A stretch of 64,000 nt of DNA from a virus (taxonomy: Duplodnaviria > Heunggongvirae > Uroviricota > Caudoviricetes). Below, piece by piece: positions 17,761 to 63,112 of this stretch. The stretch is taken from positions 296,228 to 360,227 of the IMG/VR virus record IMGVR_UViG_3300009709_000002. One strand, 5' to 3'. Each line of letters begins with the position of its first letter. Position 1 is the stretch's first letter. The translations under genes and the position numbers were made by a program. The notes under the pieces were generated by a model. The model did not search any database and was not told where the DNA came from. It saw only the letters and a list, made by a program, of their open reading frames with translations.

Positions 17761-17761
17761 G

Positions 17762-33146: not shown

Positions 33147-33164
33147 CATAATCACCTCTCGTTT

Positions 33165-34205: not shown

Positions 34206-34448
34206 TCAGTCCCTCTTAAGTCTGTACACCCTCGGTGAAAGGTATACTAGCTGGGCAAGAATCTCACCGGATTCACCGTCTTGCAATCCTAAGTACTTCG
34301 AGCCTTCGATGAGAACATCGTGGCTAGCTAAAACACTTACGCTAATGCTGGAGTCGAGGTCAGCTAAGATCTCTTGTCCTAACACACTAGCTGCATCAAC
34401 AACCTCACTCGGCTTGTTGAAAAATGAAGCAATCAAGTTAGCCAGCAT
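34206..34448 (-). CDS. hypothetical small protein
   Basis: ORF track. Confidence 0.4.
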   Translation of the reverse strand: MLANLIASFFNKPSEVVDAASVLGQEILADLDSSISVSVLASHDVLIEGSKYLGLQDGESGEILAQLVYLSPRVYRLKRD

Positions 34449-36213: not shown

Positions 36214-36300
36214 TGGAGTCCCCGGCCGGAATCGAACCGTAAGCTTTCGCTGCGTTTTCGGCTTTGCAGGCCGCTGTGTGAACCACTCTACCACGGGGAC
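36214..36300 (-). tRNA. tRNA-Cys-like (anticodon GCA) with unusually long variable region
   Basis: Acceptor gtccccg/cggggac plus CCA; loop ctGCAaa; T-loop ttcgatt. Confidence 0.45.
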
Positions 36301-40180: not shown

Positions 40181-40256
40181 TGGGTCCGTCCATCCAGAAT
40201 CGAACTGGAGTCTAATCGCTCGGAACGACTTGTACTTTCCACTGTACTATGGACGA
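40181..40256 (-). tRNA. tRNA-Arg (CCG)
   Basis: D-arm gtac-agtggaaa-gtac; loop ttCCGag; T-arm tccag-ttcgatt-ctgga. Confidence 0.65.
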
Positions 40257-46398: not shown

Positions 46399-48486
46399 TT
46401 AAATCTTGAGCTTCAACACTTGGCCGAAGCTGCCAGTCGTTCGGACGATCACATCATCACGCTTCGTCGACGAGAAGCCTAGTCCGCTGAGCTGGTTGTC
46501 GGAGTCCGCGACCTTCATCTTGCCACCAACGATCTCCAACACCTTGCGGTGCGGCGTAAGCTGATCCTTCAGGAATTCATTGAAGAATCCGCGCGACGTG
46601 CCGTCGTTCTTGCACCCGTCGATCATGAAGAAGTAGTGCAAGTTGCCGATGCCGGTGAGACCATGTCCACCAGGAATGTTTACCACGCCATCCCAGTAGT
46701 TCGGCGACAGCATCACCGCATTGACCTGATGGAAGGACTGCGTCGGCAGGTTCCAGATGGTGCGCGACGATTGCTTGCCCTTCAGCGACTCGACGATCTC
46801 GAATCCATGAGCTTTCGAGTACTTGATCTTCGCGACTTCGACGCTTTCCTTGGGCCGCAGCGCGCGGTCATAGCCGAAGCTGTAAGTCGTGCCACCGAAC
46901 TCGATCTCCACTTCAAAACCTGCGCCGTCGCTACGACGCGTGAAGTTGTGAACCACGAGACGATACACGCCTTCACGCATCTTGTCTCGATTCGGGTAGA
47001 AGATGTTTTCCACCGGATGGTCCATCATTCCGTTGCCGCCGTTTGCGTCTACGTCGAGCTGGCCATTCGCCGAGGAGCGACGTTCGGCAAAGTAGATGTG
47101 ACCGCCGCCAGGTTCATACATGTGGAAGTCCAGATCATCTTTGTACTCCCAGGCGAGACGGCAGCACAGATCGCCAGTTACGCTACCGCCAGCGGCCTTG
47201 ACACGCTCCTTGATCGAGTCGGCAAATTCGCCGGAGTACGACCATGAGAAGCCGTTGTTCCACTTGAACAGCTGGCCAGCAGTTGGATCAACGGGAGCGA
47301 TCAAGCTCGCGAAGTTTCCGGAGTGGCGATTTTCGAGCAGCACTTCGACGGTCTTGGCACGAGGCAGCACGTTAGCGATGAAGTCGGAGATTGCCATCTC
47401 CTTCACGTCGTCCAGCTTCTTGACCTTCGCCGACGTAGCAGCGGCCATCTCATCGAACACATCGCCGGTCAGCACCTGTTTCGTCGATGAGTTGGCGAAC
47501 AGCAGGTTGTTGATGGAAATGTCCGACAGAGTCGCATAGCGACGCTGCAAGGCCGACGTCAGGCCGAGTTCTTCGATCGTCTTCTTGGCCTTCTCGATCA
47601 TGGCCTTCGACACCAGCGCCGACGGACGCTTGAAGCTTGCAGCGCCGACGATGGATGATTCGAACTTCTTGACCGCATCTTCCAGATCCTTGCCTTCGGC
47701 AAGATCGTACAGCAGCACGCCGATGCCGGAGTTGCCGACCCAGGCGATGGCCGCATTTTCGAGAGACTTAGTCCAGGCGAAGAGTTCACGCTCTTCGGCC
47801 GTCTTCAGCTTGACGAATTGACGCTTCAGCGCGAGGAAGCCGTCGACGACGAACTTGTAATCTTGACCGCGATAGAGCGAGTTCTGGCGAATGATGTCCG
47901 AGACAGTTTCAACCGACTCGAGGTCGACTTCCGTGAGCGCGCGGAGCAGCACCTGCTTAGCATCGCGCAGCTTTGCGATCGACGATGCGATGTCCTTGTT
48001 CGCCATGACGAACTTGGAATCGATGTTGACGAAGAAGTGTTCCCAGGCCTTCTGGCCGTTGACCAGTTGCTCGAAGTTCCGGTTCGTCCCGGCCGAACGT
48101 TCATAGTGCAGGAACGTGTTTGCGATCGGGTGCGACTTGGCGAGCGCCGACAGCGCATCAGCCACGACTTGATAGCCAGGTTCCGACGGAACCTTCACAT
48201 CCCAGATCGAGACGAGTTTGCCGTCGATGATCGCAACGCAATCACCGATCGCGCGAATGAACTGCTTGCAGCAGGAACAATCATGCTCGGTGCGTTCGCG
48301 ATAGTGCGGGTTCGTATCTGGCGGGAAACTGCCGAGGTAGGTGTTCCACAGCAGTTCCTTCATCGACAGCTGCTTCGCACGCTCTTCTTCAGTTTCCGCA
48401 GGCACCACATCAACGCGGAATAGCTGATGTTTCTGCATGCGTTCGAACTGCTTAGCGACCGCCGTCTTTAAGACGATGAAATCCAT
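46399..48486 (-). CDS. large hypothetical protein (695 aa)
   Basis: Long ORF; AAGGAGG RBS. Confidence 0.7.
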   Translation of the reverse strand: MDFIVLKTAVAKQFERMQKHQLFRVDVVPAETEEERAKQLSMKELLWNTYLGSFPPDTNPHYRERTEHDCSCCKQFIRAIGDCVAIIDGKLVSIWDVKVPSEPGYQVVADALSALAKSHPIANTFLHYERSAGTNRNFEQLVNGQKAWEHFFVNIDSKFVMANKDIASSIAKLRDAKQVLLRALTEVDLESVETVSDIIRQNSLYRGQDYKFVVDGFLALKRQFVKLKTAEERELFAWTKSLENAAIAWVGNSGIGVLLYDLAEGKDLEDAVKKFESSIVGAASFKRPSALVSKAMIEKAKKTIEELGLTSALQRRYATLSDISINNLLFANSSTKQVLTGDVFDEMAAATSAKVKKLDDVKEMAISDFIANVLPRAKTVEVLLENRHSGNFASLIAPVDPTAGQLFKWNNGFSWSYSGEFADSIKERVKAAGGSVTGDLCCRLAWEYKDDLDFHMYEPGGGHIYFAERRSSANGQLDVDANGGNGMMDHPVENIFYPNRDKMREGVYRLVVHNFTRRSDGAGFEVEIEFGGTTYSFGYDRALRPKESVEVAKIKYSKAHGFEIVESLKGKQSSRTIWNLPTQSFHQVNAVMLSPNYWDGVVNIPGGHGLTGIGNLHYFFMIDGCKNDGTSRGFFNEFLKDQLTPHRKVLEIVGGKMKVADSDNQLSGLGFSSTKRDDVIVRTTGSFGQVLKLKI

Positions 48487-48555: not shown

Positions 48556-49227
48556 TTAGTGAAAAAGATCAAATTTACCGCTTTTGAGGATCAAGTCAGC
48601 AGAGACCTGCATGTCTGACCGATGATCTTTTACCACACCATGCTGTAACGCATAAGTGCGGATCTTTTCACCACGATTGCCGTTGCCGATTTGCGCCGCA
48701 CGAACATCAGCTGCCTTGCCGCTCACTTTCGAGTGCTCTAAAGCTGTGATCCTAGCTTCGAGCTGTTTCCAAGCTTCATCATAGCTATTCTCACGTGACC
48801 GCTGCTGCGAGGTCGCAATGATGCCTGTCGCTTTGTGTGTCAGCCTGCATGAGTTTTGATGCTTGTTGCGGTGCTGTCCACCTGCGCCAGTCCCGGAGTA
48901 CCACTCAACTTTGACATCTGCCTCATTGAGCTTGAACTCTAGCTTTACTTCGGTAGTGATTGCAACTGTGACGAGCGAGGTATGAACTCTGCCCTTCCGT
49001 TCAGTAGGCGGCACTCGTTGGAACTGGTGGCCGCCTGCTTCACTGTCTAGGAAGGTAAGGTCGGTTCCTTTAACTTCAAGGACCGTTTCGCCTACTCGAT
49101 TGACGGTGCTGACGAGGAGTCAGCCCTTGCGGAGGATCAGCTTGGTGTAAGCCTTGGCCAAATCTGCTACGAGTAGCTTGGAATCATCACCACCTTCAGC
49201 GGCGCGAATTTCGATGTAACGTTTCAT
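48556..49227 (-). CDS. prfA-like: class-I peptide chain release factor, RF1-type, lacking domain 1; in-frame TGA at 49120-49122
   Basis: GGQ motif (SGTGAGGQHRNK), RF1-type PxT tripeptide (RVPPTE) and RF C-terminal IRTY..DHR; frame verified continuous across TGA; the TGA aligns with the conserved Trp of RF1 (..EARRWRVEIM). Confidence 0.65.
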
Positions 49228-50159: not shown

Positions 50160-50792
50160 TCAAAGAATTGCAAACTCATCAAGGTTTGCGTCAATCAGTT
50201 CATTCTGGCATTCAAGAATATCTCTGTCATCTTCATACACATACTTCTTTACTATTCTAAGCGCAACAAATTGATCTTCTTTTGAACCATTATCACATAC
50301 AATGAATTTCAGTTTTGGCGCTTTTAGTAAACTCAACAATCCACATTCTATCTTTATGTCATTAGAAAAATTTAATTGCTGAATTTTAGAAGATGGCTCC
50401 AATTTTAGTGATTTAATTTTGGCTCTCTTAAATTCTATTTGCAAGAAATCAATATTTAAATTACAAAGTAATTTAGCATCATCTATGATACAATTTTCAT
50501 ATCTAATGCCATTACCATGCTCTTCTAAAATATTAAGCCATACGTCATCTGGTACTGGACATTTTGTGATTGCTTTATCTTTGAAATTGAAAAATATTTT
50601 CCAGTATGAAAATTTATCATTATTTTTAGAATTATATGCTTTTACCAGCAAATCATATACTTCATCACCATCAAACTTTTTAAAGTTCATATGTGACTGA
50701 TCAACTGACAATATAACGTGATCTTTAAACCATTGTTTAGTCGATGGAGAATTCCACGCTATTTTTGATTTTGAAATTTCATGTAGTTTCAT
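50160..50792 (-). CDS. Family-A paralog (AT-rich copy)
   Basis: C-term CQNELIDANLDEFAIL. Confidence 0.75.
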   Translation of the reverse strand: MKLHEISKSKIAWNSPSTKQWFKDHVILSVDQSHMNFKKFDGDEVYDLLVKAYNSKNNDKFSYWKIFFNFKDKAITKCPVPDDVWLNILEEHGNGIRYENCIIDDAKLLCNLNIDFLQIEFKRAKIKSLKLEPSSKIQQLNFSNDIKIECGLLSLLKAPKLKFIVCDNGSKEDQFVALRIVKKYVYEDDRDILECQNELIDANLDEFAIL

Positions 50793-51400
50793 AGCTTTGC
50801 GTACTCATCAAGATTTGCATCAATCAGTTCATTCTGGCATTCAAGAATATCTCGGTCGTCTTTCAACAAGTGCTTGTTGATGATTTGAAGCGCTAATTGC
50901 AAGTCTTTCGGGCATGAAGCTGTGCCACCTACTCGGCCAATCGTTTTGCACTTCAAAATACCAAGCAATCCACACTTAACTTTCGGAAAATCTAGTGTTA
51001 GATTATCAATGCCTCCATCTAGCGAACCAAGCTTAAATGTATGAAACTCGCATCGATCCAAGATAAGCAGCTGAGCTATCGGCATTTTATCCCACGTGTC
51101 AATAACTGCACCGATTATGCGCAAACTTTCAAGCCGATTGTTACCTTGCGGCCAAGCTTTAGAATCAAATGGAATTGAGCTGATAGTTTCTTGGTGCATT
51201 ACCAGACAAGCTTTATTGATGTTCTCAATCTCTACCTTGCCATTTTCATATTTGAAAGTTACTCCACGCTCTTTCTCATACGAGATGTCATTACCATCTA
51301 CTTTCTCAGCGGTGCGTGAATCAAGGCCCCAATGCAAGGCGTGCTTTACCCACTCATCACCTACGTTATCTGATTCTTGCAGATATTGTTTGAATTTCAT
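50789..51400 (-). CDS. Family-A paralog
   Basis: C-term CQNELIDANLDEYAKL. Confidence 0.8.
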   Translation of the reverse strand: MKFKQYLQESDNVGDEWVKHALHWGLDSRTAEKVDGNDISYEKERGVTFKYENGKVEIENINKACLVMHQETISSIPFDSKAWPQGNNRLESLRIIGAVIDTWDKMPIAQLLILDRCEFHTFKLGSLDGGIDNLTLDFPKVKCGLLGILKCKTIGRVGGTASCPKDLQLALQIINKHLLKDDRDILECQNELIDANLDEYAKL

Positions 51401-52023
51401 ACCTTAGCCCACTTTTCAAACCCAGCGTCAATTAAATCTGATTGACATTCAATAATGTCTTTGCCTTCTTTGAGGTGTTTATTGACAATCTCAAATGCTT
51501 TCTCTACGTCATTATCAGCTTCATTAAAGCCATGAACGGTCTTGATGTTTTCTGTCTTCATTAGATTAAGAAGACCACACTTGATCTTTACATCTTCAAA
51601 ATTTAGAGAGTTCGTATTGACTGACGGTGGAAACTTAACAGACTCAACCACAGCACCGTTCAAATAAAGCCTAAGAAGTTTTGCTGGTGTGAAAAGCTTC
51701 TTAGGATCTTTCAAAATCCCATTGAAAACTGTTTGATGCTTGACTTGATCGCCAAACACAGCTGTCCAAAGATCTACTGAGAAATCCGGTGGCATTGAAT
51801 ATTCTTCATCCGTTTCATGATAGAATTCCAGAAAGAGCTTACACGGTCCAGAGTTTTCAGGCACGCCTTTATTTAGCGCAGTGCAAATAGCTTCACCAGT
51901 ATAAAGCGGCGTTGATCCATCATTAAATGAGCCAACGTTCACGATAATTGCATGCTTCATGAACCAATCTTCGGCTTTTGGTGATAATGCCCGTTTTGGT
52001 TTTGTTATCTCTGTTAGTTTCAT
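51397..52023 (-). CDS. Family-A paralog
   Basis: C-term CQSDLIDAGFEKWAKV. Confidence 0.8.
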   Translation of the reverse strand: MKLTEITKPKRALSPKAEDWFMKHAIIVNVGSFNDGSTPLYTGEAICTALNKGVPENSGPCKLFLEFYHETDEEYSMPPDFSVDLWTAVFGDQVKHQTVFNGILKDPKKLFTPAKLLRLYLNGAVVESVKFPPSVNTNSLNFEDVKIKCGLLNLMKTENIKTVHGFNEADNDVEKAFEIVNKHLKEGKDIIECQSDLIDAGFEKWAKV

Positions 52024-52506: not shown

Positions 52507-52583
52507 TGGTACACGGTGTCAGACTCGAACTGACATACTCAATCTTGTAAGGATTGTGGACTAACCTCTCTCACCAACCGTGC
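52507..52583 (-). tRNA. tRNA, anticodon loop ctTACaa (Val-UAC-like), atypical D-arm
   Basis: Acceptor gcacggt/accgtgt plus CCA; T-arm gtcag-ttcgagt-ctgac. Confidence 0.5.
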
Positions 52584-52585
52584 GG

Positions 52586-52658
52586 TACCTGGTGACGGGA
52601 TCGAACCGCCGACAATCGCCTTGTAAGGGCGGTGCTCTACCAGCTGAGCTAACCAGGC
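52586..52658 (-). tRNA. tRNA-Val (UAC); no encoded CCA; 2 nt from previous tRNA
   Basis: Canonical D-arm tagctcagctggtagagc; loop ctTACaa. Confidence 0.7.
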
Positions 52659-52664
52659 ATCATA

Positions 52665-52889
52665 TCATTCAACTTCACTGTCACTCGGAAACTCAGGCGT
52701 CTGAGGAGTCGGTGACGTGTAGATGAACTCGACTAAATTCGTCGAAGTTTCACTATAGAACAAAGTCAAGCTGGGATCGAGTGTTGGTGGTTCTGTCACC
52801 GTCGGATCATACCCAACATAATAAACTTGCACTCCGGTAGCAGTGAGATTATCAAGCTGCTGCTTTTGTGCCAGTGTGAAATTGTTCAT
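52665..52889 (-). CDS. hypothetical small protein inside the tRNA cluster
   Basis: GGAGTAAGTT RBS inside a conserved hairpin. Confidence 0.45.
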   Translation of the reverse strand: MNNFTLAQKQQLDNLTATGVQVYYVGYDPTVTEPPTLDPSLTLFYSETSTNLVEFIYTSPTPQTPEFPSDSEVE

Positions 52890-52921
52890 AACTTACTCCA
52901 TTTGATGGAGTATTTATTACT

Positions 52922-52997
52922 TGGCCCCTTGGAGTGGATTTGAACCACCGACAGGAGATGTTCAGTCTCCTACTCTACCAGGCTGAGTTACCGCGGG
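52922..52997 (-). tRNA. tRNA-Phe (GAA)-like
   Basis: Loop ctGAAca; T-loop ttcaaat; CCA; acceptor has 2 mismatches. Confidence 0.5.
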
Positions 52998-53052
52998 ATT
53001 GTAGCACCTGACATAGATTATAGAGGATATCAGGTGACAACGTCTCCTCTTT

Positions 53053-53128
53053 TGGCTCCCCAGGCTGGGCTCGAACCAACGACCATTGCATTAACAGTGC
53101 AACGCTCTACCAACTGAGCTACTGGGGA
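53053..53128 (-). tRNA. tRNA-Asn (GUU)
   Basis: Perfect acceptor tccccag/ctgggga plus gCCA; loop ctGTTaa. Confidence 0.8.
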
Positions 53129-53255
53129 ATTGACTGGTTTCTACGCATTTAAAAGTATCGTAAGGGCTTATCCAGACAGCCTCAACATTAATAGTGAATT
53201 GCAACCAATAAAGCCTACCCCGCAAGGCAGACTACCGTCATCGTCTTATCATCAC

Positions 53256-53331
53256 TGGTGCCCCTTGTCTGATTCGAACAGACCACCTACGCATTACAAG
53301 TGCGTTGCTCTACCAAATGAGCTAAAGGGGC
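53256..53331 (-). tRNA. tRNA-Thr (UGU)
   Basis: Acceptor gcccctt/aaggggc plus aCCA; loop ctTGTaa. Confidence 0.8.
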
Positions 53332-53405
53332 AATGACGTTAGAGTTAAAAGCAATCTGAGTGATTTTTCTATGCGCGAAGTAACTCAGATCTACGCAACT
53401 AACGA

Positions 53406-53480
53406 TGGAGCCCTGCCACGGAATCGAACCGTGTTCGCTGGATTACAAAACCAGTATAATAACCAATATACGAGAAGGGC
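53406..53480 (-). tRNA. tRNA, Thr(UGU)-like loop ttTGTaa, noncanonical D-arm
   Basis: T-arm acgg-ttcgatt-ccgt; CCA. Confidence 0.5.
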
Positions 53481-53523
53481 ATTAAAGGCAGAGATAAAGT
53501 CGAAAAGTGTTTAAGCCTCTTGC

Positions 53524-53600
53524 GAGGTTCGATGGACTTGAACCATCCTTATCGCCAAGATTATTAGTCCCGCGAATTTACCCGATGTAACACTTCACTA
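53524..53600 (-). tRNA. tRNA-like element (perfect T-arm gatgg-ttcaagt-ccatc, no clear acceptor)
   Basis: Partial structure only. Confidence 0.25.
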
Positions 53601-53610
53601 CGCAACTACC

Positions 53611-53685
53611 TGGTGCCCTAGTACGGAATCGAACCGCATTTTCTTGATTACGAAACAAGTGTAATAGCCAGTATACTACAAGGGC
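53611..53685 (-). tRNA. tRNA, loop ttCGTaa (Thr-CGU-like), noncanonical D-arm
   Basis: Acceptor gcccttg/ctagggc plus aCCA. Confidence 0.5.
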
Positions 53686-53689
53686 AATC

Positions 53690-53896
53690 TTAATCTTCAC
53701 CGGGCTTCTTCAATGTGAAGCCCTTATCAATCGCGATACTTTCCAACAGTGCGCAGATAACTTTCATTGCACCAAGCGGACCAGATCCTTTCGGATAGTA
53801 AGCGAGATAATACTCTTGCAACTGTTCTTCTGTGTCGAACTGGCCTACAAAATCAGGCAGAAAACGAGGAAAAGAACGTTCAATTTTCTTTTTCAT
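53690..53896 (-). CDS. hypothetical small protein inside the tRNA cluster
   Basis: ORF track. Confidence 0.4.
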   Translation of the reverse strand: MKKKIERSFPRFLPDFVGQFDTEEQLQEYYLAYYPKGSGPLGAMKVICALLESIAIDKGFTLKKPGED

Positions 53897-53956
53897 GATT
53901 TACTCCAAGTTGTAGATGGTACTATTCTATCATCATTTCATCTCAAAGTAAATTAG

Positions 53957-54030
53957 TGGTCAAGGATAACGGAATCGAACCGTTGACTCTTCGCTCCAAA
54001 GGAAGTATGTTACCATTACATCAATCCAAG
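53957..54030 (-). tRNA. tRNA-Pro (UGG)-like
   Basis: D-arm atgt-aatggtaa-acat; loop ttTGGag; CCA. Confidence 0.5.
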
Positions 54031-54112
54031 ATAGACACAGAGTTAAAGTCGACGTGAGCTGTTGTAAGCAAATGGAAGATTAGCGATGAAACTCACTTCT
54101 ACGCAACTGTGT

Positions 54113-54186
54113 TGGTCACCGTGGCTGGAATCGGACCAGCGATTCGACCATCCGAGGGTCGTATGTTACCACTACATTACACGGGG
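54113..54186 (-). tRNA. tRNA-Pro (CGG)
   Basis: D-arm atgt-agtggtaa-acat; stem cgacc/ggtcg; loop ctCGGat; CCA. Confidence 0.65.
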
Positions 54187-54579
54187 ATTGCTGAATCTAC
54201 GGATAGGTTCCCTCTGTTCCGGGAGTCGTATTTATCGTAGCCTTCAACTTACAAACTTGAGAATGGTTTGTTCAACCAAGCTTGGTATTCACCAGGCTTC
54301 CATTCTTTGGCTTTACACTCTTCATCAAATTTCTTCAGACGTTCATTCAATCTTTTGAAATCTTCTTCAGTAGGTTCAAACTTCTTTGCTGCTTCAATCA
54401 ATTCACAAACTGTCATAGATCTAAGTCCGAGATTGGATCTTCAGCTTTACCGCTACCCCAACATCTACTACATGCTCTTGGATCGCAGTTAACTAATTCT
54501 TCATAAGTTGGCTCATACTGATCGCCAGGCTCATAACCAGAACCTTCACATCGTTCACACTTATCAACTTTATTCATGA

Positions 54580-54653
54580 TGGCAGGCCACCAGGGAATCG
54601 AACCCCGGTCCGCAGTTTTGGAGACTGTTATGTTACCACTACACTAGTGACCC
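54580..54653 (-). tRNA. tRNA-Trp (CCA)
   Basis: Loop ctCCAaa; T-arm cgggg-ttcgatt-ccctg; gCCA. Confidence 0.75.
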
Positions 54654-54788
54654 GTTGTACTTCAATGATAGCAGCTAGATCCACTTTAACAGTGTTGCCC
54701 GGGACGTGCTGATCTGACCCAACTACTATTATTGAAGTTGCTGGTTACAAGTTCCAGCGATGCCTCTATCTTTGGCCCTGATTTTCTA

Positions 54789-55016
54789 CTACGCGTTAAC
54801 GGCTGGGAAGTCGCCGCCAACGTTATCTGCTTCATCCTGTCCGTCATAGCCGCATGTTGCACATGAAACATCATCGGACGGATTTACATCTGTCGGCATC
54901 GGAGCACCACAGTTAGCACAGATTTCATCACCGTCATTATTGAACGAATCTCTGTTCAACATGCGCCGCTGATCTTTTGCCGACTGAAGAGGAGTCATTA
55001 ACTCTTTAAGCTTCAT
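54789..55016 (-). CDS. small zinc-ribbon protein (CxxC..CxxC), paralog of 55026..55226
   Basis: MKLKELMTPLQSAKD...CANCG...CATCGYDG. Confidence 0.5.
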   Translation of the reverse strand: MKLKELMTPLQSAKDQRRMLNRDSFNNDGDEICANCGAPMPTDVNPSDDVSCATCGYDGQDEADNVGGDFPAVNA

Positions 55017-55025
55017 GATTCATCC

Positions 55026-55226
55026 TCAAGGATTCGGTGCGGCATAATCGCCTGCCACATCTTCCGAACCCGGTTCTCCATCATATCCACACTCAGTACA
55101 TGCACCTTCATCATCCATCGTATCTTGACCACATTGTGGACAAGGTCCGGTTTGTTCATCTCGAGAAAGCATGCGATAACGATCTTTCGTCGATTGAAGC
55201 GGAATATTCAGCTCATGTAACTTCAT
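55026..55226 (-). CDS. small zinc-ribbon protein, paralog of 54789..55016
   Basis: MKLHELNIPLQSTKD...CPQCG...CTECGYDG. Confidence 0.5.
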   Translation of the reverse strand: MKLHELNIPLQSTKDRYRMLSRDEQTGPCPQCGQDTMDDEGACTECGYDGEPGSEDVAGDYAAPNP

Positions 55227-55240
55227 GTTTCATCCTTAGT

Positions 55241-55315
55241 TGGCGGTCCGTAAGGGGATCGAACCCTCATGTCCGGATAGACAGTCCAGCATAATGACCA
55301 TTATATGAACGAACC
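55241..55315 (-). tRNA. tRNA-Asp (GUC)-like
   Basis: Loop ctGTCta; acceptor ggttcgt/acggacc; CCA. Confidence 0.5.
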
Positions 55316-55346
55316 AGCGATGAAACTATTTATACAACTCAAAACT

Positions 55347-55420
55347 TGGTGGGTCTGCCTGGAATTGAACCAGGAATCTCCGGCGGCAATCGCGCAGTGT
55401 GTTGCTTACACTACAGACCC
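55347..55420 (-). tRNA. tRNA, anticodon unresolved (atypical loop cgATTgc)
   Basis: Perfect acceptor gggtctg/cagaccc plus aCCA; T-arm cctgg-ttcaatt-ccagg. Confidence 0.5.
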
Positions 55421-55583
55421 AAGGAATGATTGACGAGTCACTCGGATTTGCACCCAGGTTTCACGCTTTGCTCGCGTGCGTCCTTCTACTAGACGATAAC
55501 CCTCACTACTTTTCGCTGGTTGGCGCCAACTTTGCGTAGTGCAATCATAATTTTACATCCGTGCGCCAACACTTCAGTAAAAT

Positions 55584-55656
55584 TGGTGGAGCTGCCTGGA
55601 ATTGAACCAGGAATCTTCAGCCTAAGCGGCCGATGTGTTGCTTACACCACAACTCC
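55584..55656 (-). tRNA. tRNA, anticodon unresolved (loop cgCTTag); paralog of 55347..55420
   Basis: Same D and T arms as its neighbour; CCA. Confidence 0.5.
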
Positions 55657-55663
55657 AAAATAT

Positions 55664-55882
55664 TTAGTGAACTAACATCACCTGAACGACTGGTGTTTCT
55701 GAACCATCATTCTCTGTCCAGAAACGAATAGCGAAGCAATCTACTGCGTAAGCTTCACCACCGTCGATCGCTTCAACGAGTAGCTCTTTCTTCTGATCAA
55801 ACTGTTGAAGATGTTTGATAGCTTCTTCAACCGTCATTTTCTTCACCTTGTTGCTCACGAAGAATATCCATTGCGAAATCAT
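55664..55882 (-). CDS. hypothetical small protein
   Basis: ORF track. Confidence 0.4.
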   Translation of the reverse strand: MISQWIFFVSNKVKKMTVEEAIKHLQQFDQKKELLVEAIDGGEAYAVDCFAIRFWTENDGSETPVVQVMLVH

Positions 55883-56066
55883 AACCTGACCAGTTATCTA
55901 CACCAGCACATTCAAGCGCAGTGAGCTTTGCTGAATCTTCACAAAGACTGTTATACTCTTTCTTTGTGATAGTTACCATCTCTTCAGTTGGTGCAACCAT
56001 GTTGTTGTCCTCAGTTTGAATCAGTAAGAGGATTCTAAATCATTTCAACAACATCGTAAATTTATT

Positions 56067-56140
56067 TGGTAGTCCGTTACGGAATCGAACCGTCTTCATT
56101 CGCTAATCGGGCGAAGACCTTACCAATAGATGACCGGACC
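56067..56140 (-). tRNA. tRNA-Ile (GAU)-like
   Basis: Stem ttcgc/gcgaa; loop ccGATta; CCA. Confidence 0.5.
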
Positions 56141-56225
56141 ATTGTAGTACTAGAGTTAAAGTCGAAAAGAGAAATTTTACGTGCTCGGCCATTGAGCTAC
56201 AGCGCCATTAAATCAACTACAAGTT

Positions 56226-56300
56226 TGGCGACGCTGGCTGGGATTCGAACCCTGCATCCACGCGATTCGGAGTCGGAGTAACTCTTCTCTACGCAACTAA
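56226..56300 (-). ncRNA. tRNA 3'-half-like fragment (T-arm plus acceptor plus CCA, no 5' half found)
   Basis: cagggttcgaatccc...gtcgCCA with no complementary 5' acceptor. Confidence 0.3.
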
Positions 56301-56303
56301 TAC

Positions 56304-56378
56304 TGGCGCCGCGGAGGGGGAATGATCCCCTACTTCATCCGTGACAGGGATGCATGCAGACCACTACATCACCGCGGC
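56304..56378 (-). tRNA. tRNA-Asp (GUC)
   Basis: Perfect acceptor gccgcgg/ccgcggc plus gCCA; stem catcc/ggatg; loop ctGTCac. Confidence 0.75.
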
Positions 56379-56388
56379 AAAATAATTC

Positions 56389-56465
56389 TGGTCCCTGCGC
56401 TTGGACTCGAACCAAGGACCTATGCGTTATCAACACATTGCTCTAACCAGCTGAGCTACGCAGGG
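56389..56465 (-). tRNA. tRNA-Ile (GAU)
   Basis: Canonical D-arm tagctcagctggttagagc; loop ttGATaa; aCCA. Confidence 0.8.
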
Positions 56466-56744
56466 ATTTTATGAAGCACTCATACAATTCCGTCGTGTCA
56501 TCAGGGTGCGCTTCAAGTTACACCAATATGAATGAGATGATGAGTCCCTAACTGTTAACCAAGTCGACGTTGCATAATACTCATCGGAAATATGCAGGCC
56601 CATAGGCTCTGTTACAGCCCAGCCGAAGCCGGTAAAACTAGTAAGTTTCTGCTCCACGACCTGGGAACGATCCAGGCTAATCGTGATTAACAGTCACGCG
56701 GTTGCCACCAAGGCGCCTCTCGTGGAGCAGAAACTTCTAATCTT

Positions 56745-56819
56745 TGGTACCCGCAGTTGGTATCGAGCCAACCTCTGAGCCTTATCAAGACTCTGCTAAT
56801 CCGTCTCAGCTATACGGGC
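56745..56819 (-). tRNA. tRNA, loop ttGATaa (Ile-GAU-like), atypical D-arm
   Basis: T-arm gttgg-ctcgata-ccaac; aCCA. Confidence 0.5.
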
Positions 56820-56830
56820 ATTGTACTAAT

Positions 56831-56908
56831 TGGCTCCGGTTCAGGGAATCGAACCCCGCTCTATGCGCATTAACAGTGCGCCGCTTACACCTTGCTTGCT
56901 CAACCGGA
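56831..56908 (-). tRNA. tRNA-Asn (GUU)-like, atypical D-arm
   Basis: Perfect acceptor tccggtt/aaccgga plus gCCA; stem gcgca/tgcgc; loop ctGTTaa. Confidence 0.55.
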
Positions 56909-56975
56909 ATCGGTCGCCGAGAATTTTATACTTGATAGCTCGGCAGTCAAGTCGTGGCAGCTTCTACCACTGTTT

Positions 56976-57047
56976 TGGACCCACCGGACAGAGTCGAACT
57001 GTCTACATCTCGTTCGTAGCGAGTTGGCCTAATCCCTAGGCGGTGAG
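56976..57047 (-). tRNA. tRNA-Arg (ACG)
   Basis: Loop ctACGaa; T-arm gacag-ttcgact-ctgtc; tCCA. Confidence 0.6.
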
Positions 57048-57052
57048 ATACT

Positions 57053-57130
57053 TGGTGGGTGCGCTGGGATTCGAACCCAGGTCAGCCGGATTAAGAGTCC
57101 GGTATAATAAAGCCGCTATACGACACACCC
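57053..57130 (-). tRNA. tRNA-Lys (CUU)
   Basis: Stem ccgga/tccgg; loop ctCTTaa; aCCA. Confidence 0.6.
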
Positions 57131-57141
57131 AAAATAAAACT

Positions 57142-57215
57142 TGGTGGGACTGGAGGGTACTGGCCCCTCTTCTACGAGGTAAAAGCTCGTTGCTTCACTT
57201 TAAAGCTTCAATCCC
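57142..57215 (-). tRNA. tRNA-Lys (UUU), unusual T-loop
   Basis: D-arm gctt-taaagtg-aagc; stem acgag/ctcgt; loop ctTTTac; aCCA. Confidence 0.6.
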
Positions 57216-57226
57216 ATTCTACATCT

Positions 57227-57302
57227 TGGCGGGGGTGCTAGGTTTCGAACCTAATCCTAGTGAGTCAGAGTCACTCATGCAAACCAATTACACCTCACCC
57301 CT
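57227..57302 (-). tRNA. tRNA-Gln (CUG)
   Basis: Stem agtga/tcact; loop ctCTGac; gCCA. Confidence 0.55.
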
Positions 57303-57313
57303 ACTGTACTTCT

Positions 57314-57388
57314 TGGTAGTCCTCCAGGGAATCGAACCCTGTCACCTGCGGTCAAAGCGCAGTATCTGCTCCAATCGATTTGAGGACA
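57314..57388 (-). tRNA. tRNA-Gln (UUG)
   Basis: Stem ctgcg/cgcag; loop ctTTGac; T-arm caggg-ttcgatt-ccctg. Confidence 0.6.
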
Positions 57389-57390
57389 GG

Positions 57391-57462
57391 TGCCGCCGAT
57401 TGGTAACGATCCAACCTCTTGGGTGTTTCAAACCCACGCTAATCCATCTCAGCTACCGCGGC
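57391..57462 (-). tRNA. tRNA-Phe (GAA)-like; no encoded CCA; unusual T-loop
   Basis: Acceptor gccgcgg/cggcggc; stem tgggt/accca; loop ttGAAac. Confidence 0.5.
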
Positions 57463-57474
57463 ATCTATAAATCT

Positions 57475-57551
57475 TGGGGTGAATGAGGGGAATCGAACCC
57501 CCACCGAGATGTTCACAGCATCCCATGCAGAACCACTACACTACATCCACC
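57475..57551 (-). tRNA. tRNA-His (GUG) with encoded G-1
   Basis: Loop ctGTGaa; extra 5' G before acceptor gtggatg/cattcac; cCCA. Confidence 0.65.
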
Positions 57552-57586
57552 ATTGAAGTAGAGCCCGAAGACTCTACCTTGAAACT

Positions 57587-57901
57587 TTACACCTTGTCTG
57601 GATACTTTTCATCCAGCCAGTCGATATAAGCTAGAGGGCTCATACCTGGCTCACAGTTGTGAATCTTTGTGAAGCCATTTTCCTTTGTGATCAACGATTC
57701 AGTTCCTGGAACTGCACCGCGATATTTCTGTCCGTACTGGCCTTCAATTTGACCAGTTGCTGGATTTAAATCTCCCCAGAAAGCCTTCTTACCTGCGAGA
57801 GGTTCTACGAAATAAGTCTTACCAGTGCGCTGCGATACAACGATAAAGCGGCCGGTTTCATCTGTATTTGTGAGAAACCTTGCCCGTAGGTCGGGGTCCA
57901 T
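57587..57901 (-). CDS. hypothetical protein
   Basis: ORF track. Confidence 0.45.
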   Translation of the reverse strand: MDPDLRARFLTNTDETGRFIVVSQRTGKTYFVEPLAGKKAFWGDLNPATGQIEGQYGQKYRGAVPGTESLITKENGFTKIHNCEPGMSPLAYIDWLDEKYPDKV

Positions 57902-57929
57902 ATCAAGTCCTATTCAAGTTAAGTACAGC

Positions 57930-58005
57930 TGGTGCAGCCTCCCGGTTTCGATCCGGGCTTTCTACCTTTTCAGAGTAGCACTTTCACCAGATTAGTTTAG
58001 GCTGC
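57930..58005 (-). tRNA. tRNA-Phe (GAA)-like
   Basis: Perfect acceptor gcagcct/aggctgc plus aCCA; T-arm cccgg-atcgaaa-ccggg; loop ctGAAaa. Confidence 0.55.
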
Positions 58006-58024
58006 ATTCATTACATCTACTACT

Positions 58025-58099
58025 TGGCATCGATGAGGGGAGTCGAACCCCCGTTTCCAGATTGAAAGTCTAGCGTCCTAACCATTAGACGACATCGAT
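58025..58099 (-). tRNA. tRNA-Glu (UUC)
   Basis: Perfect acceptor atcgatg/catcgat plus gCCA; loop ctTTCaa. Confidence 0.7.
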
Positions 58100-58113
58100 A
58101 TTGTTAGACAATA

Positions 58114-58189
58114 TGGAGTCTCCAGCCGGGCTCGAACCGTGCATTCCAACCTTGAAAGGGTTGTGTCCTGACCTTTAGACGATGGAGAC
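58114..58189 (-). tRNA. tRNA-Glu (UUC), tandem duplicate
   Basis: Perfect acceptor gtctcca/tggagac; stem caacc/ggttg; loop ctTTCaa. Confidence 0.7.
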
Positions 58190-59919: not shown

Positions 59920-60294
59920 TTAGCCCTTGTAGCTAGCAGCGATCATTTCGAATTGCTTCTTCCACGGCCAATCATTCTTGAAGAAGGCCTTGAAGCTTTG
60001 GTGATCGAGGTTGATCTTTTCATCGACAGACATCTCGAACATCTCGATCATTTCCGTGAATTCCGTCTCGTGATTTTGCGGCGGATTGATGCCGAGCGAG
60101 GTGATCTGCACGAGCTGTGCGTCAGTCGCAGCATTGACTTCCTTGGTCTTTGCCTTCAGATCACGAAGCACCTTGGCGCGAAAGTCTTGAACAGCCTCGG
60201 CGTACTCAGCTTGGTGAATGGCGAGGTTTTCCTTGAGCGCGGTGATGAGATCAAGGCGAAGGACGTTGACAGAACGTTGATTGTGATTTAGCAT
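59920..60294 (-). CDS. hypothetical protein
   Basis: ORF track. Confidence 0.45.
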   Translation of the reverse strand: MLNHNQRSVNVLRLDLITALKENLAIHQAEYAEAVQDFRAKVLRDLKAKTKEVNAATDAQLVQITSLGINPPQNHETEFTEMIEMFEMSVDEKINLDHQSFKAFFKNDWPWKKQFEMIAASYKG

Positions 60295-61109
60295 TATTTC
60301 GATGCGGAAAGTTGGTTAAAATTGAGGAACGGCATTTGTTCACCGCTGTACTGCGACGGCAGAACACCATTCCACTTCTTGATCGCTTCAAGCGCGATGA
60401 ACTTGTCACCACCTTGATTTTCAACGGCTTGTGCCTGGATCGCGATCGCCTTAGCGTTACCTTCAGCTTCAACGACCTTCTGCTCGGTGGAGATCTTTGC
60501 AGTTTCGAGAGCTTGTTCAGCTGTCAAGCGGTTCTGACCAGCCACGACCTTGCGACGAACTGCGTCAGCAAATTGCGGATCGAAGTGGAAGTTTTGGACG
60601 TTAATGTCCGACACGATGATGTGGTACTTCGACAGCTTTGTCTGCAGCGTTGAAACGATGTCGGCCGAAACTGCTGCACGCTTCGTGACGAGCTCTTCAG
60701 CCGTGTACTTCGCCGTCACACCCTTGAATGATTCATACAGCGCCGGGACGATGAACTTCGTCTCGATATCTGCGTCATCACCGAAGTTGTTGTAGATGTA
60801 CGGAGCTTGAGTAGGATCATACTCATAGTTCACCGAGATATCTTCAAACACTTCTTGAAGGTCAGACGTACCGCCTTCTGCTCGTGGAGCTTGAGCACTT
60901 TGGAAACGGACGTTGAAATCCTTGACGACGGCCAGCGGATTCAGGAAGTGCAGACCTTCAGATAGAGGGACACTTTGTACATCACCGAACAGCTTAACAA
61001 CACCGCGGTGACCTGCAGGAACGACGTGAACAGCGGTGAAAATGCCGAACAAGAGAGCAGCGCTTGCTACTGCACCAGCGATGATATTTTTGTTAAACGG
61101 AGACGCCAT
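60294..61109 (-). CDS. SPFH (band-7/prohibitin/HflKC-like) domain membrane protein
   Basis: N-terminal TM helix then VPAGHRGVVKLFG SPFH signature. Confidence 0.65.
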   Translation of the reverse strand: MASPFNKNIIAGAVASAALLFGIFTAVHVVPAGHRGVVKLFGDVQSVPLSEGLHFLNPLAVVKDFNVRFQSAQAPRAEGGTSDLQEVFEDISVNYEYDPTQAPYIYNNFGDDADIETKFIVPALYESFKGVTAKYTAEELVTKRAAVSADIVSTLQTKLSKYHIIVSDINVQNFHFDPQFADAVRRKVVAGQNRLTAEQALETAKISTEQKVVEAEGNAKAIAIQAQAVENQGGDKFIALEAIKKWNGVLPSQYSGEQMPFLNFNQLSASK

Positions 61110-61262
61110 GTGGATGTACCTATTGGTTGTTTTGGTATGGACATATTATCATGACGTTTTGTTTGAGTATATTTTAATTGTAGGATTACTCATCACACAT
61201 GCAACAAGGCCACTAGCGTCAACTAGTGGCCTTGAGAACTACTTTGAAGCTAGGTGATCGTG

Positions 61263-62444
61263 TTAACCGTCGTCACGAAGCAAGAATGCTTCCATCGCAC
61301 GTTGGCACGCCGAAATTCTTGCAGCTTGCAAGAGAATACCAACATGAGGTCCTTGCTCACCAGGAGCTACTACATCAGCTGTTATCAGAGCCGCGATTTT
61401 TGCCGAATACAACACCAAATCTGATGTCATTTCAGGAACTTCGCCAAGCAATTCATACAGCAAGAGCGGATTCAGGTTAGTGAACCAGACCGGAGTGCGC
61501 CAGACGCCGATGAACTTCAACGTCTTGTGAAGACCGACAGCAGTCATGCCGTTCGCCAGCTCGTCACCGATGCTGATGAGCATGTTCGCATCATTGATCG
61601 CGCTGCTCTGCATCTTGATGTCGGCGAAATCAGCATTGCGATTGAACGCCGAGATCACCGCAAGCATACACGAAACAAACTCGGACTCCGACAGCTCATC
61701 TTCATGATCTTCGATAAGCTGAATCGAGTCGAAGATCATAGCAATCCGCGAGTATTTCATGTCACCAAGCCACTTCTTGAAGAAGCTCACGGTCCGCACG
61801 GCGTCGACCAAGAACAGCGTGTGGAAGAAATTCATCGGGTGCGGTTCAATGAACGCACGGGTGATTTCTTTCCAGTAGCGCTCGTGAGAAACTTCATCGA
61901 GCTCACCAGATTTGATGACTTCCTTGCAAAGCTCGATCGTGTCTGGTGCGATCGTGAAGTCGAATCTGGCAGCGAAACGTGCAAGCCGCAAGACACGCAG
62001 CGGATCTTCCGAGAAAGCTTCCGATGTGTGTCGCAAAATGCCGCTATGGAGATCATCTTCACCACCGAACGGGTCGATCAGTGTGGTCAAACCTTTGTTG
62101 GGAGCTGGGATGATCGTTCCATCTTGCTTCACGACGGAAACTTCATACGCCATCGCGTTGATAGTCAAGTCGCGGCGGCGCAGATCATCTTCAATCGTCA
62201 CGCTCGAGTCAAAAGCCGTCTCGAAGCCGTGATAGCCGACGCCGACCTTGCGTTCAACACGAGCCAACGCCCATTCATCGCCAGTTGTAGGGTGAAGGAA
62301 CACTGGGAAATCTGCACCAACCTGCTTGAAGCCGAAGCTCACCATTTCTTCAGGTGTCGAGCCGACAACGACATAGTCGACGTCTTTCGGCTTGCGGGAC
62401 AACAGCATGTCCCGCACAGCTCCACCAACAACATATACTTTCAT
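61263..62444 (-). CDS. cca: tRNA nucleotidyltransferase (CCA-adding enzyme), class II
   Basis: GGAVRDMLL...DVDYVV head motif and RRRDLTINA motif B. Confidence 0.8.
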   Translation of the reverse strand: MKVYVVGGAVRDMLLSRKPKDVDYVVVGSTPEEMVSFGFKQVGADFPVFLHPTTGDEWALARVERKVGVGYHGFETAFDSSVTIEDDLRRRDLTINAMAYEVSVVKQDGTIIPAPNKGLTTLIDPFGGEDDLHSGILRHTSEAFSEDPLRVLRLARFAARFDFTIAPDTIELCKEVIKSGELDEVSHERYWKEITRAFIEPHPMNFFHTLFLVDAVRTVSFFKKWLGDMKYSRIAMIFDSIQLIEDHEDELSESEFVSCMLAVISAFNRNADFADIKMQSSAINDANMLISIGDELANGMTAVGLHKTLKFIGVWRTPVWFTNLNPLLLYELLGEVPEMTSDLVLYSAKIAALITADVVAPGEQGPHVGILLQAARISACQRAMEAFLLRDDG

Positions 62445-63082: not shown

Positions 63083-63112
63083 ATTATAACATCAACAACC
63101 ACTAAAGTAAAC
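63083..63112 (-). promoter_or_regulatory. T4-early-type promoter
   Basis: GTTTAC...TGtTATAAT. Confidence 0.55.

Follow-up and report, generated by a model that had tools for sequence, protein, structure and literature searches.

A divergent phage tRNA nucleotidyltransferase predicted to complete and maintain tRNA 3′ ends, and its probably unrelated SPFH neighbour

Why would a phage with a large set of tRNA genes also encode a CCA-adding enzyme, and does the membrane protein encoded next to this enzyme share in its function? The question is raised by a locus in a 64-kb stretch of the genome of a large phage of the Caudoviricetes (64,000 nt, hereafter the window), which a first-pass annotation had read as a tRNA repair or maturation module scaffolded at the membrane by an SPFH protein. 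The family, motifs and fold of the cca product, its missing HD motif, the 3′-end sequences of the tRNA genes and the pattern of synteny are shown directly; the activity, the substrates, the route of processing and the units of transcription we infer. The reading that we consider likely is that cca specifies a phage class II CCA-adding enzyme that completes and maintains tRNA 3′ ends, and that the SPFH gene is unrelated to it. The elements of the locus are as follows.

59920..60294, minus strand: 124-aa ORF, overlapping the stop of the SPFH gene by 1 nt; matches phrog_34511 (E 3.5e-34)
60294..61109, minus strand: SPFH/Band-7 gene (prohibitin family), 271 aa; PF01145 at 91.4 bits against a cut-off of 23.6; phrog_200
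61206..61233, minus strand: perfect 11-bp hairpin between cca and the SPFH gene, AAGGCCACTAG-TTGACG-CTAGTGGCCTT, located 30 nt past the stop of cca
61263..62444, minus strand: cca, 393-aa class II tRNA nucleotidyltransferase (predicted CCA-adding enzyme) of an HD-less phage clade
62441..63049, minus strand: 202-aa ORF upstream of cca, its stop sharing 4 nt (ATGA) with the start of cca
63083..63111, minus strand: sigma-70-like candidate promoter (TTTACT-17-TATAAT, with TG) ahead of the 202-aa ORF/cca pair; 10/12 in a consensus scan, a pattern match only

The cca product among class II nucleotidyltransferases

The 393-aa protein (N-terminus MKVYVVGGAVRD) carries the motifs by which the gene had originally been recognised: GGAVRD (aa 7-12) and DVD (aa 21-23, the two catalytic carboxylates) constitute motif A, and RRRDLTINA (aa 89-97) is motif B. 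To these can be added motif D (EDxxR...R), read as EDPLRVLRLARF at aa 146-157. Motif B (RRD) and motif D form the protein template that selects CTP and ATP, and residues of both have reportedly been assigned roles in nucleotide selection. The two Pfam models proposed in the first-pass annotation as a check both exceed their cut-offs, PF01743 (head domain) with 66.5 bits against 23 (E 3.6e-18) and PF12627 (RNA-binding neck) with 24 bits against 22. The match to phrog_2244, ‘tRNA nucleotidyltransferase’, spans the whole protein (E 2.2e-93, 314.8 bits; aa 1-384 aligned to profile positions 3-388 of 392). In an alignment of 23 homologs, HD-bearing ones included (A1), motifs A-E are invariant, the strictly conserved positions being G7, G8, R11, D12, D21, D23, R90, R91, D92, D124, D147, R150, R153, R156 and F157, while E146 is kept in at least 90% of the sequences.

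The AF2 model of the protein (pLDDT 90.6, pTM 0.85) is confident and predicts a head-neck-body-tail architecture. Foldseek aligned it over its full length (about 400 columns) with 4wc2, 3h38, 6qxn and 1miv, at E-values of 1e-13 to 1e-15, TM of 0.5-0.67 and a probability of 1.00. Cca is a soluble protein and has no motif for membrane attachment or interaction.

Among NCBIfam models the best is PRK10885, i.e. E. coli-type Cca, with 293 bits over aa 1-219 (head and neck); this lies below the equivalog cut-off of 451 bits, so that the protein cannot be called an equivalog. The two enzymes are alike in that head and neck align from residue 1, in motifs A-E, in the loop that links motifs A and B and in the predicted fold. 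What distinguishes them is the HD signature (H...HD...D, PF01966), present in E. coli-type Cca and absent here: PF01966 gave no match to the phage protein at E ≤ 0.01, and the columns that hold HPEG...H...HDxGK in three HD-bearing homologs (P0033, P0047 and P0086) contain gaps or other residues. E. coli Cca is said to possess 2′,3′-cyclic phosphodiesterase and phosphatase activities; since the HD signature is missing, neither would be expected of the phage enzyme.

Could the gene encode a nucleotidyltransferase of another specificity, either poly(A) polymerase-like or adding A only or CC only? The head-domain motifs are common to class II CCA-adding enzymes, A-adding enzymes and bacterial poly(A) polymerases, and the top Foldseek match, 4wc2, is the A-adding enzyme of Aquifex; however, the Foldseek E-values do not separate CCA-adding from A-adding enzymes. 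The phage tRNAs that lack an encoded CCA (see below) mostly need A76 only. Moreover, the C-terminal body/tail half is strongly diverged, which is why neither the substrate range nor the choice between CCA and A-only addition can be read from the sequence, and an insertion of about 17 aa separates motifs B and C in this protein and its closest relatives (P0001-P0006), a shorter one being found in P0010. Against these points, HD-bearing Cca homologs show 55-60% identity to it over head and neck, and they align without gaps to the loop that joins motifs A and B, HPTTGDEWALARVERKVGVGYHGF, which has the length seen in cellular enzymes. This loop is reportedly required at full length for the addition of A76 and shortened in CC-adding enzymes. 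As to poly(A) polymerase, the pcnB models score far below the 293 bits of Cca and below their own cut-offs (TIGR01942, 78.8 bits against 305.65; NF008634, 59.6 against 702), the protein begins directly at motif A instead of with the N-terminal extension of PcnB, and a regular-expression search downstream of motif E found no PAP signature, a motif that is said to mark poly(A) polymerases. The first-pass annotation had named a poly(A) polymerase paralog as one finding that would overturn it, and the scores point the other way. An altered specificity thus seems quite improbable. On sequence grounds the product belongs to the Cca lineage of class II tRNA nucleotidyltransferases and is no PcnB paralog, and we predict it to be functional.

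Phage enzymes of this kind have been described before, and the present gene is an ordinary further member of the family. Homologs occur in 421 GenBank phage records, mostly annotated as tRNA nucleotidyltransferase; the hosts of these phages are for the most part Gram-negative, among them Vibrio, Escherichia and Erwinia. The enzymes of PHROG 2244, e.g. those of Vibrio phage QD01, Rheinheimera phage Barba19A, Xanthomonas phage XacN1 and Klebsiella phage RaK2, are of the same length class and likewise HD-less; they belong to large phages with many tRNA genes and are presumed to add or restore CCA. XacN1, for example, has 56 tRNA genes and a CCA tRNA nucleotidyltransferase (PMC5852040), and CCA-adding enzymes of jumbo phages have been described as restorers of 3′ ends (PMC7824862); our literature searches turned up no experimental study of a CCA-adding enzyme from a phage. 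The window protein differs from GenBank phage proteins in being at most about 55% identical to them over the N-terminal half and 34% identical to the best full-length match, that of QD01, and the insertion between motifs B and C sets it and its closest metagenomic relatives apart from other PHROG 2244 members. At the DNA level, the 7 kb around the locus had no near match among GenBank phages. We propose that these proteins form a large clade of enzymes of about 360-390 aa, many of them on phage or phage-like contigs, which would have originated from a proteobacterial Cca and lost the HD motif.

tRNA genes and the ends that they encode

ARAGORN predicts 30 tRNA genes in the window, all on the minus strand; Rfam confirmed 26 of them and added one, so that 31 tRNA-like genes can be counted. 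As the first-pass annotation stated, cca lies about 3 kb from a large cluster of them. The cluster is downstream of cca, and 3074 nt separate the stop of cca from the end of the nearest tRNA gene (58114..58189). The annotation had also noticed at least two tRNAs without an encoded CCA, which slightly understates the case: the full CCA is encoded in 27 genes and missing from four, three of which are well supported.

52507..58189, minus strand: main tRNA cluster, 26 ARAGORN genes plus the Rfam-only gene 57145..57215 (Lys-TTT-like)
52584..52658, minus strand: tRNA-Val(TAC), ends A73-C-C and abuts G+1 of the next tRNA-Val; A76 not encoded; Rfam 62.7 bits
57389..57462, minus strand: tRNA-Phe(GAA), ends A73-C-C and abuts U+1 of tRNA-Gln(TTG); A76 not encoded; Rfam 42.1 bits
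40183..40256, minus strand: tRNA-Arg(CCG), ends A73-C-C followed by C; A76 not encoded; Rfam 50.9 bits
56651..56726, minus strand: Asn(GTT)-like tRNA gene, G73-C followed by AGA, without CCA; atypical T-loop; found by ARAGORN only, below the Rfam gathering score

The Asn(GTT)-like gene may be a degenerate copy. The three ACC-ending genes are another matter: their tRNAs cannot function unless A76 is added. Most likely Cca would supply this nucleotide during infection to phage tRNAs whose genes end N73-C-C, two of which could be released as tRNA-CC-3′OH by nothing more than the RNase P cut at the abutting downstream tRNA. A similar arrangement is found in a collinear relative, L002, where tRNA-Pro(CGG) ends ACC and abuts tRNA-Pro(TGG), and where A76 is likewise missing from the tRNA genes for Asn (16485-16576), Asp (17049-17123) and Trp (19122-19197).

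A parallel is offered by the tRNA cluster of T4, which likewise contains genes without CCA, packed head-to-tail; in T4 as here, genes of this form make a nucleotidyltransferase necessary for function. Some T4 tRNAs reportedly need the host enzyme (Deutscher, Foulds and McClain 1974, as cited in PMC6468291). The difference is that T4 relies on the CCA-adding enzyme of its host, whereas the present phage brings its own. Only three or four of the 31 genes need Cca, and the host enzyme could serve them, so this need alone cannot account for the retention of the gene. A second probable role is the rebuilding of CCA ends that exonucleases have trimmed, in host tRNAs as well as in the roughly 31 of the phage, and a phage with its own Cca would be less dependent on that of the host for its translation supply. 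The proposal that the phage matures or repairs its own tRNAs may therefore be kept in part: completion and maintenance of 3′ ends are plausible in view of the three ACC-ending genes, but repair of anticodon damage is not (see below).

The SPFH gene and the other neighbours of cca

The SPFH protein resembles the prohibitin-family proteins of Burkholderiaceae and phages (PHROG 200, distant kin of HflK/HflC) in having a Band_7 domain, an N-terminal anchor and a C-terminal coiled-coil-like region. The putative anchor, read from the sequence, is the hydrophobic stretch IIAGAVASAALLFGIFTAVHVV (aa 9-30); the lipobox cysteine is missing, despite the PHROG label ‘lipoprotein’. It is no equivalog of HflK or HflC, the respective models scoring far below their cut-offs (TIGR01933, 32 bits against 159.4; NF008181, 23 against 660). 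Its identity to ‘prohibitin family protein’ entries of Burkholderiaceae and to metagenomic phage copies is high, 72-81%. A recent transfer of the gene from a high-GC host was considered and rejected: its GC content is 50.5%, as in the neighbouring genes, as compared to 57-58% in the Paraburkholderia and temperate-phage copies, and the high protein identity is hence better ascribed to constraint.

Is this protein a membrane scaffold for tRNA maturation by Cca, as had been suggested? The two genes do adjoin on the same strand, 153 nt apart, and in our synteny check of 18 loci the adjacency was kept in L006 and also in L002, whose Cca is only 52% identical. But L002 is collinear across the whole region, the order of the tRNA cluster included, and the shared adjacency is for this reason best taken as inherited synteny; it is limited to these two close relatives. 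Eleven loci with eight more distantly related cca homologs of phages (L001, L003-L005 and L009-L013 among them) had no SPFH gene near cca, and conversely no cca was found around the SPFH homologs of L007, L008, L014 and L015. A Paraburkholderia chromosome and a temperate-phage-like contig have SPFH genes whose products are 77-79% identical to the present one, in neither case with cca and in the contig next to RecT/YqaJ. The host ranges diverge as well, since the SPFH homologs, found in 505 phage records, belong mostly to Staphylococcus and Enterococcus phages, as against the mostly Gram-negative hosts of cca phages. Further points against a scaffold are the conserved hairpin between the two genes and the absence from Cca of any motif for membrane attachment or interaction. 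A membrane-scaffolded module of Cca and SPFH is hence very improbable. The comparisons do not support a common mechanism; they suggest that the neighbour is an independently mobile, prohibitin-family membrane protein, and that the adjacency reflects the collinearity of one lineage.

The hairpin, which is identical in L006, recurs at the same place in L002, where one A:T pair has become T:A by compensatory change, a C:G pair has become T:G and the tail is more U-rich. It looks like a terminator or attenuator, judging by its sequence; a simple scan for terminators passed it over on account of its weak T-run. On the other side of cca, the 4-nt ATGA overlap suggests that the 202-aa ORF and cca are co-transcribed and translationally coupled. 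From these pattern matches, the two genes are probably transcribed together and insulated from the next gene by the hairpin. The 202-aa ORF has no Pfam match, only an N-terminal match to phrog_17208, and is not part of the 20-copy paralog family of the window; it is found at the same place in L002 (50% identity) and L006 (99%). It was rejected as a conserved partner of Cca, because members of its family do not adjoin cca elsewhere. The 124-aa ORF beyond the SPFH gene has no Pfam match either, and its homolog in L002 is 48% identical.

Repair, defence and the meaning of the locus

The first-pass annotation had further supposed that the enzyme might counter host nucleases, those attacking anticodons or those attacking CCA ends. 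The former idea is not supported: Cca acts on the 3′ end only and is HD-less, and an anticodon-repair kit in the window was rejected after the 52 ORFs scanned with Pfam had revealed neither an RNA ligase nor a polynucleotide kinase. The latter may hold, and one may go further and ask whether Cca mainly reverses a host attack on tRNA 3′ tails rather than performing routine maturation. Examples of such attacks would be the RNA-triggered cleavage of tails by Cas12a3, or toxins acting on the acceptor end by trimming or extension. tRNA 3′ tails are indeed cleaved by Cas12a3; RuvC-type cleavage is expected to leave a 3′-OH, to which an HD-less enzyme could add nucleotides. In addition, the window contains other candidate genes for anti-defence or translation rescue, encoding a NADAR protein and an RF-1-domain protein, and Iyer et al. 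class phage CCA-adding enzymes with RNA-repair counter-measures. However, the fragment released by Ba1Cas12a3 is 5′-ACCA-3′, so that the discriminator base is lost too, and a CCA-adding enzyme cannot restore it. Neither in the window nor in its relatives does anything tie cca to a sensor or a particular defence, PADLOC matches none of cca, SPFH and the two flanking ORFs, and the idea fits the whole family without being specific to this locus. We therefore regard a dedicated counter-defence role as unlikely, and slightly more so its extension to the HD-less phage clade as a whole, in which these enzymes would rebuild tails cut to a 3′-OH by Cas12a3-like RuvC nucleases or by exonucleolytic trimming. 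Were this true, HD-less Cca would be the ‘yet unknown means of resistance’ called for by the authors of the Cas12a3 study, and the CC-ending phage tRNA genes would be a side effect of carrying the enzyme.

Completion and maintenance of 3′ ends thus remains the preferred reading. The locus, which by itself alters no current view, is a divergent addition to a well-populated family of phage CCA-adding enzymes. Its value may lie in the clean natural substrate set that it provides, namely three CC-ending phage tRNAs, two of them predicted to be released at CC-3′OH by RNase P alone. Such a set would be well suited to a direct test of whether a phage Cca matures tRNAs, repairs them or counters a defence that targets their tails.

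Identity of the nucleotidyltransferase

Between 57 and 64 kb the window consists of a series of minus-strand ORFs, one of which encodes the putative CCA-adding enzyme:

61263..62444, minus strand: cca, 393 amino acids (PF01743, PF12627, PHROG 2244, motifs)

The protein begins with MKVYVVGGAVRD and carries the two motifs claimed in the first-pass annotation, DVD (residues 21-23) and RRRDLTINA (residues 89-97); its matches to the Pfam families PF01743 (66.5 bits) and PF12627 (24 bits) both exceed the gathering thresholds. Its top curated-family match is PRK10885, the proteobacterial Cca equivalog (293 bits), restricted to residues 1-219, i.e. the head and neck domains, while PHROG 2244 ('tRNA nucleotidyltransferase') covers the full length (E 2.2e-93). 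When the protein was aligned with 22 homologs, three of which have an HD phosphohydrolase domain, no class II motif residue varied, and the window protein had a full-length loop joining motifs A and B. A confident AlphaFold model built from this alignment (pLDDT 90.6, pTM 0.85) matched the solved class II CCA-adding and A-adding enzymes 4wc2, 3h38, 6qxn and 1miv over about 400 aligned columns (E 1e-13 to 1e-15, TM 0.5-0.67). The other candidate, a bacterial poly(A) polymerase (PcnB), was rejected: the pcnB models gave 79 and 60 bits for cut-offs of 306 and 702, the protein starts at motif A and lacks the N-terminal extension of these polymerases, and a regular-expression search found no match to their signature. 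From family scores, motifs, predicted fold and the absence of these polymerase features, Cca is a Cca-lineage class II nucleotidyltransferase, which has retained the architecture for polymerisation and tRNA binding and lacks the HD phosphohydrolase site.

The cellular Cca proteins of the alignment have an HPEG...H...HDxGK pattern in their C-terminal half; the corresponding columns are gaps or unrelated residues in the window protein and in the other class members of about 360-390 amino acids. A Pfam scan of the window protein gave no match to the HD family PF01966; of its 120 top relatives in the database, 114 lack this family too. The HD domain of E. coli Cca has reported activities on 2',3'-cyclic and 3'-phosphates and, since this site is missing, the phage enzyme should not be expected to remove such groups. 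The window protein shares an extra insertion of about 17 amino acids between motifs B and C with its closest relatives (P0001-P0006); the homolog P0010 has a shorter version.

tRNA genes lacking A76 and the probable role of the enzyme

ARAGORN predicts 30 tRNA genes in the window, all on the minus strand and 26 of them within 52507..58189; 3074 nt separate the cca stop from the end of the nearest one, so that the proposed distance of about 3 kb stands. Rfam supports 26 of the 30, the calls at 56651, 56831, 57314 and 58114 being under its gathering score, and adds one at 57145..57215 (minus strand), which is Lys-TTT-like and has an atypical T-loop. Reading of the 3' ends showed that CCA is encoded in 27 genes. 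It had been claimed that at least two tRNAs lack it; there are three well-supported genes ending in CC, and a weak one:

52584..52658, minus strand: tRNA-Val(TAC), ends A73-C-C, with base 1 of the next tRNA directly after it
57389..57462, minus strand: tRNA-Phe(GAA), ends A73-C-C, with base 1 of the next tRNA directly after it
40183..40256, minus strand: tRNA-Arg(CCG), ends A73-C-C, then C
56651..56726, minus strand: weak Asn-like gene, ARAGORN only, without CCA

The three well-supported genes give no chargeable tRNA unless A76 is added. For tRNA-Val and tRNA-Phe, an RNase P cut at the 5' end of the abutting downstream tRNA would alone release a tRNA-CC-3'OH, which would be a direct substrate for the phage Cca. 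The same situation recurs in L002, a collinear relative whose Cca is 52% identical: its 23 tRNAs follow a similar order in a cca, SPFH, tRNA cluster layout, tRNA-Pro(CGG) ends in ACC and adjoins Pro-TGG, and A76 is also missing from Asn (16485-16576), Asp (17049-17123) and Trp (19122-19197).

Other tRNAs are unusual in different ways. The genes at 55347..55420 and 55584..55656 (minus strand) are near-duplicates with a very short D arm, one being called Asn with anticodon ATT by ARAGORN, probably owing to a degenerate or mis-assigned anticodon loop; tRNA-Cys (36214..36300, minus strand) is 87 nt long with a long variable arm. Suppressor-like tRNAs are encoded on phage contigs that have related cca genes, with anticodon TTA (reads UAA) in L002 (18041..18113) and locus L012 (11927..12002) and CTA (reads UAG) in locus L011 (11869..11944); the window showed no clear equivalent.

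CCA-adding enzymes act only at the 3' terminus, and the mending of anticodon-loop cuts needs end-healing and ligation. Some phage T4 tRNAs reportedly depend on the host CCA-adding enzyme (Deutscher, Foulds and McClain 1974, listed in PMC6468291). Like T4, the window phage and L002 have tRNA genes whose CCA is not fully encoded and that need a nucleotidyltransferase; unlike T4, which uses the host enzyme, the window phage has its own cca. In E. coli, CCA is encoded by all tRNA genes and cca is needed only to repair ends, trimmed mainly by RNase T (PMC6468291). With about 31 extra tRNAs being expressed, a copy on the phage would plausibly safeguard their maturation as well as their repair. The first-pass proposal is thus plausible as regards maturation and repair, but not as regards the countering of anticodon nucleases, because the enzyme is limited to the 3' terminus; no RNA ligase or polynucleotide kinase was found among the 52 window ORFs scanned. 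It is conceivable that Cca acts against tail-cutting immunity such as Cas12a3, which cuts off tRNA tails and which, its authors state, viruses would have to resist in some unknown way (PMC12851939). But the Ba1Cas12a3 product is ACCA, including the discriminator base that Cca is unable to replace, and the idea is not specific to this locus.

The SPFH neighbour

60294..61109, minus strand: SPFH/Band-7 protein, 271 amino acids (PF01145, 91.4 bits), 153 nt downstream of cca
61206..61233, minus strand: perfect 11-bp hairpin between cca and the SPFH gene

The SPFH protein, whose N-terminal segment is hydrophobic, had been proposed to scaffold a tRNA module at the membrane. The window, L002 and L006 (the 95% relative) all have the two genes side by side; since L002 is collinear with the window across the whole region, the adjacency is inherited gene order. 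No SPFH gene lies near the more distant cca homologs of QD01, Yong MS31, Barba19A, L001 and L009-L013. SPFH homologs were found in 505 phage records, mainly of Staphylococcus and Enterococcus phages, and no cca lies near the closest GenBank copies. L006 has an identical hairpin; in L002 the hairpin is conserved, with a compensatory change at one pair and a tail richer in U. The start codon of cca overlaps the stop codon of an upstream 202-aa ORF (ATGA), a promoter-like site (pattern match) precedes this pair, and the SPFH stop overlaps the start of a downstream 124-aa ORF by 1 nt; these features make it likely that the 202-aa ORF and cca form one unit, and SPFH and the 124-aa ORF another, with the hairpin between them. 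The 202-aa ORF family is also present elsewhere without cca. Nothing supports a membrane-scaffolded Cca-SPFH module.

Burkholderiaceae entries named 'prohibitin family protein' share 72-81% identity with the SPFH protein. A 77% identical copy stands alone amid metabolic genes on a Paraburkholderia chromosome, and a 79% identical one adjoins RecT/YqaJ on a temperate-phage-like contig. Very recent transfer was rejected, since the GC content of the gene (50.5%) fits its phage neighbours and not these copies (57-58%); the high identity therefore reflects constraint. The nearest named relatives of the phage protein are prohibitin-family proteins from Burkholderiaceae chromosomes (72-77%), which hints weakly at the lineage of the host, but GC is 47% in the window and 61.5% at the Paraburkholderia locus.

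Gene content and distribution

Several other genes of the window were recorded:

22074..22571: nucleoside 2-deoxyribosyltransferase-like protein, near the NADAR gene
27601..28419: R2K ATP-grasp protein, near the NADAR gene
28827..29330: T4 Gp30.3-family protein, near the NADAR gene
29982..30758: NT5C nucleotidase, near the NADAR gene
31417..32004: HNH endonuclease, near the NADAR gene
32703..33296: GNAT, near the NADAR gene
34438..34929, minus strand: NADAR-domain protein (PF08719, 156 bits), candidate ADP-ribose-removing anti-defence enzyme
46399..48486, minus strand: 695-aa protein (phrog_1735, E 3.5e-253; no Pfam match)
48556..49014, minus strand: RF-1-domain protein, 152 amino acids (PF00472, 77 bits), resembling ArfB / peptidyl-tRNA hydrolase

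The RF-1-domain gene lies shortly upstream of the tRNA cluster; L011 has a similar RF-1-domain gene (438..836), at a distance of about 7 kb from its cca homolog. The 695-aa protein has homologs in 544 phage records and shares 51-52% identity with proteins from phiCbK-like Caulobacter phages and from Ralstonia phage phiRSL1. A striking expansion is formed by 20 paralogous minus-strand ORFs of about 190-240 amino acids, 16 head-to-tail in 254..10229 and the others at 39539..40171, 50160..50792, 50789..51400 and 51397..52023, which share a leucine-rich C-terminal pattern (...SLKGIEKL...CGLLRLLK...) and gave no Pfam or PHROG match.

In L002 the tRNA cluster is interspersed with T7 endonuclease I-like (14589..15131) and T7 Gp5.9-like (RecBCD inhibitor family; 17513..17959) genes and a PF04447 dATP/dGTP pyrophosphohydrolase-family gene (21057..21149) follows shortly downstream of it, a hint that phages of this lineage have a set of genes for DNA modification or anti-defence. 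The neighbours of the distant phage cca homologs in L011 and L012/L013 comprise NAD kinase, AAA_28 (NadR-like), Thg1, Macro, 2H-phosphoesterase-like, ClpP and R2K ATP-grasp genes, an RNA-repair and NAD-related grouping that recurs there and is absent at the window cca locus.

Cca homologs were found by tblastn in 421 GenBank phage records, mostly annotated as tRNA nucleotidyltransferase, the main hosts being Vibrio, Escherichia, Erwinia, Klebsiella and Aeromonas. The enzyme has been listed among jumbo-phage RNA-repair enzymes (Iyer et al. 2021, PMC7824862), and phage XacN1 combines 56 tRNA genes with a CCA tRNA nucleotidyltransferase (PMC5852040). Since megablast of 7 kb around the locus against GenBank phages returned no match, the window phage is new at the DNA level; the top GenBank matches to Cca reach 34% identity along the whole protein or about 55% within its N-terminal half, and among metagenomic copies one is 95% and several are 50-54% identical. 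The cca gene is real but ordinary, a divergent new member of a known phage CCA-adding enzyme family in a large tRNA-rich phage. Its interest is modest and lies in the loss of the HD motif from an enzyme that in other respects is of the proteobacterial Cca type, in the insertion between motifs B and C that is specific to its lineage, and in the recurring CC-ending, abutting tRNA genes, which provide a concrete substrate for Cca.
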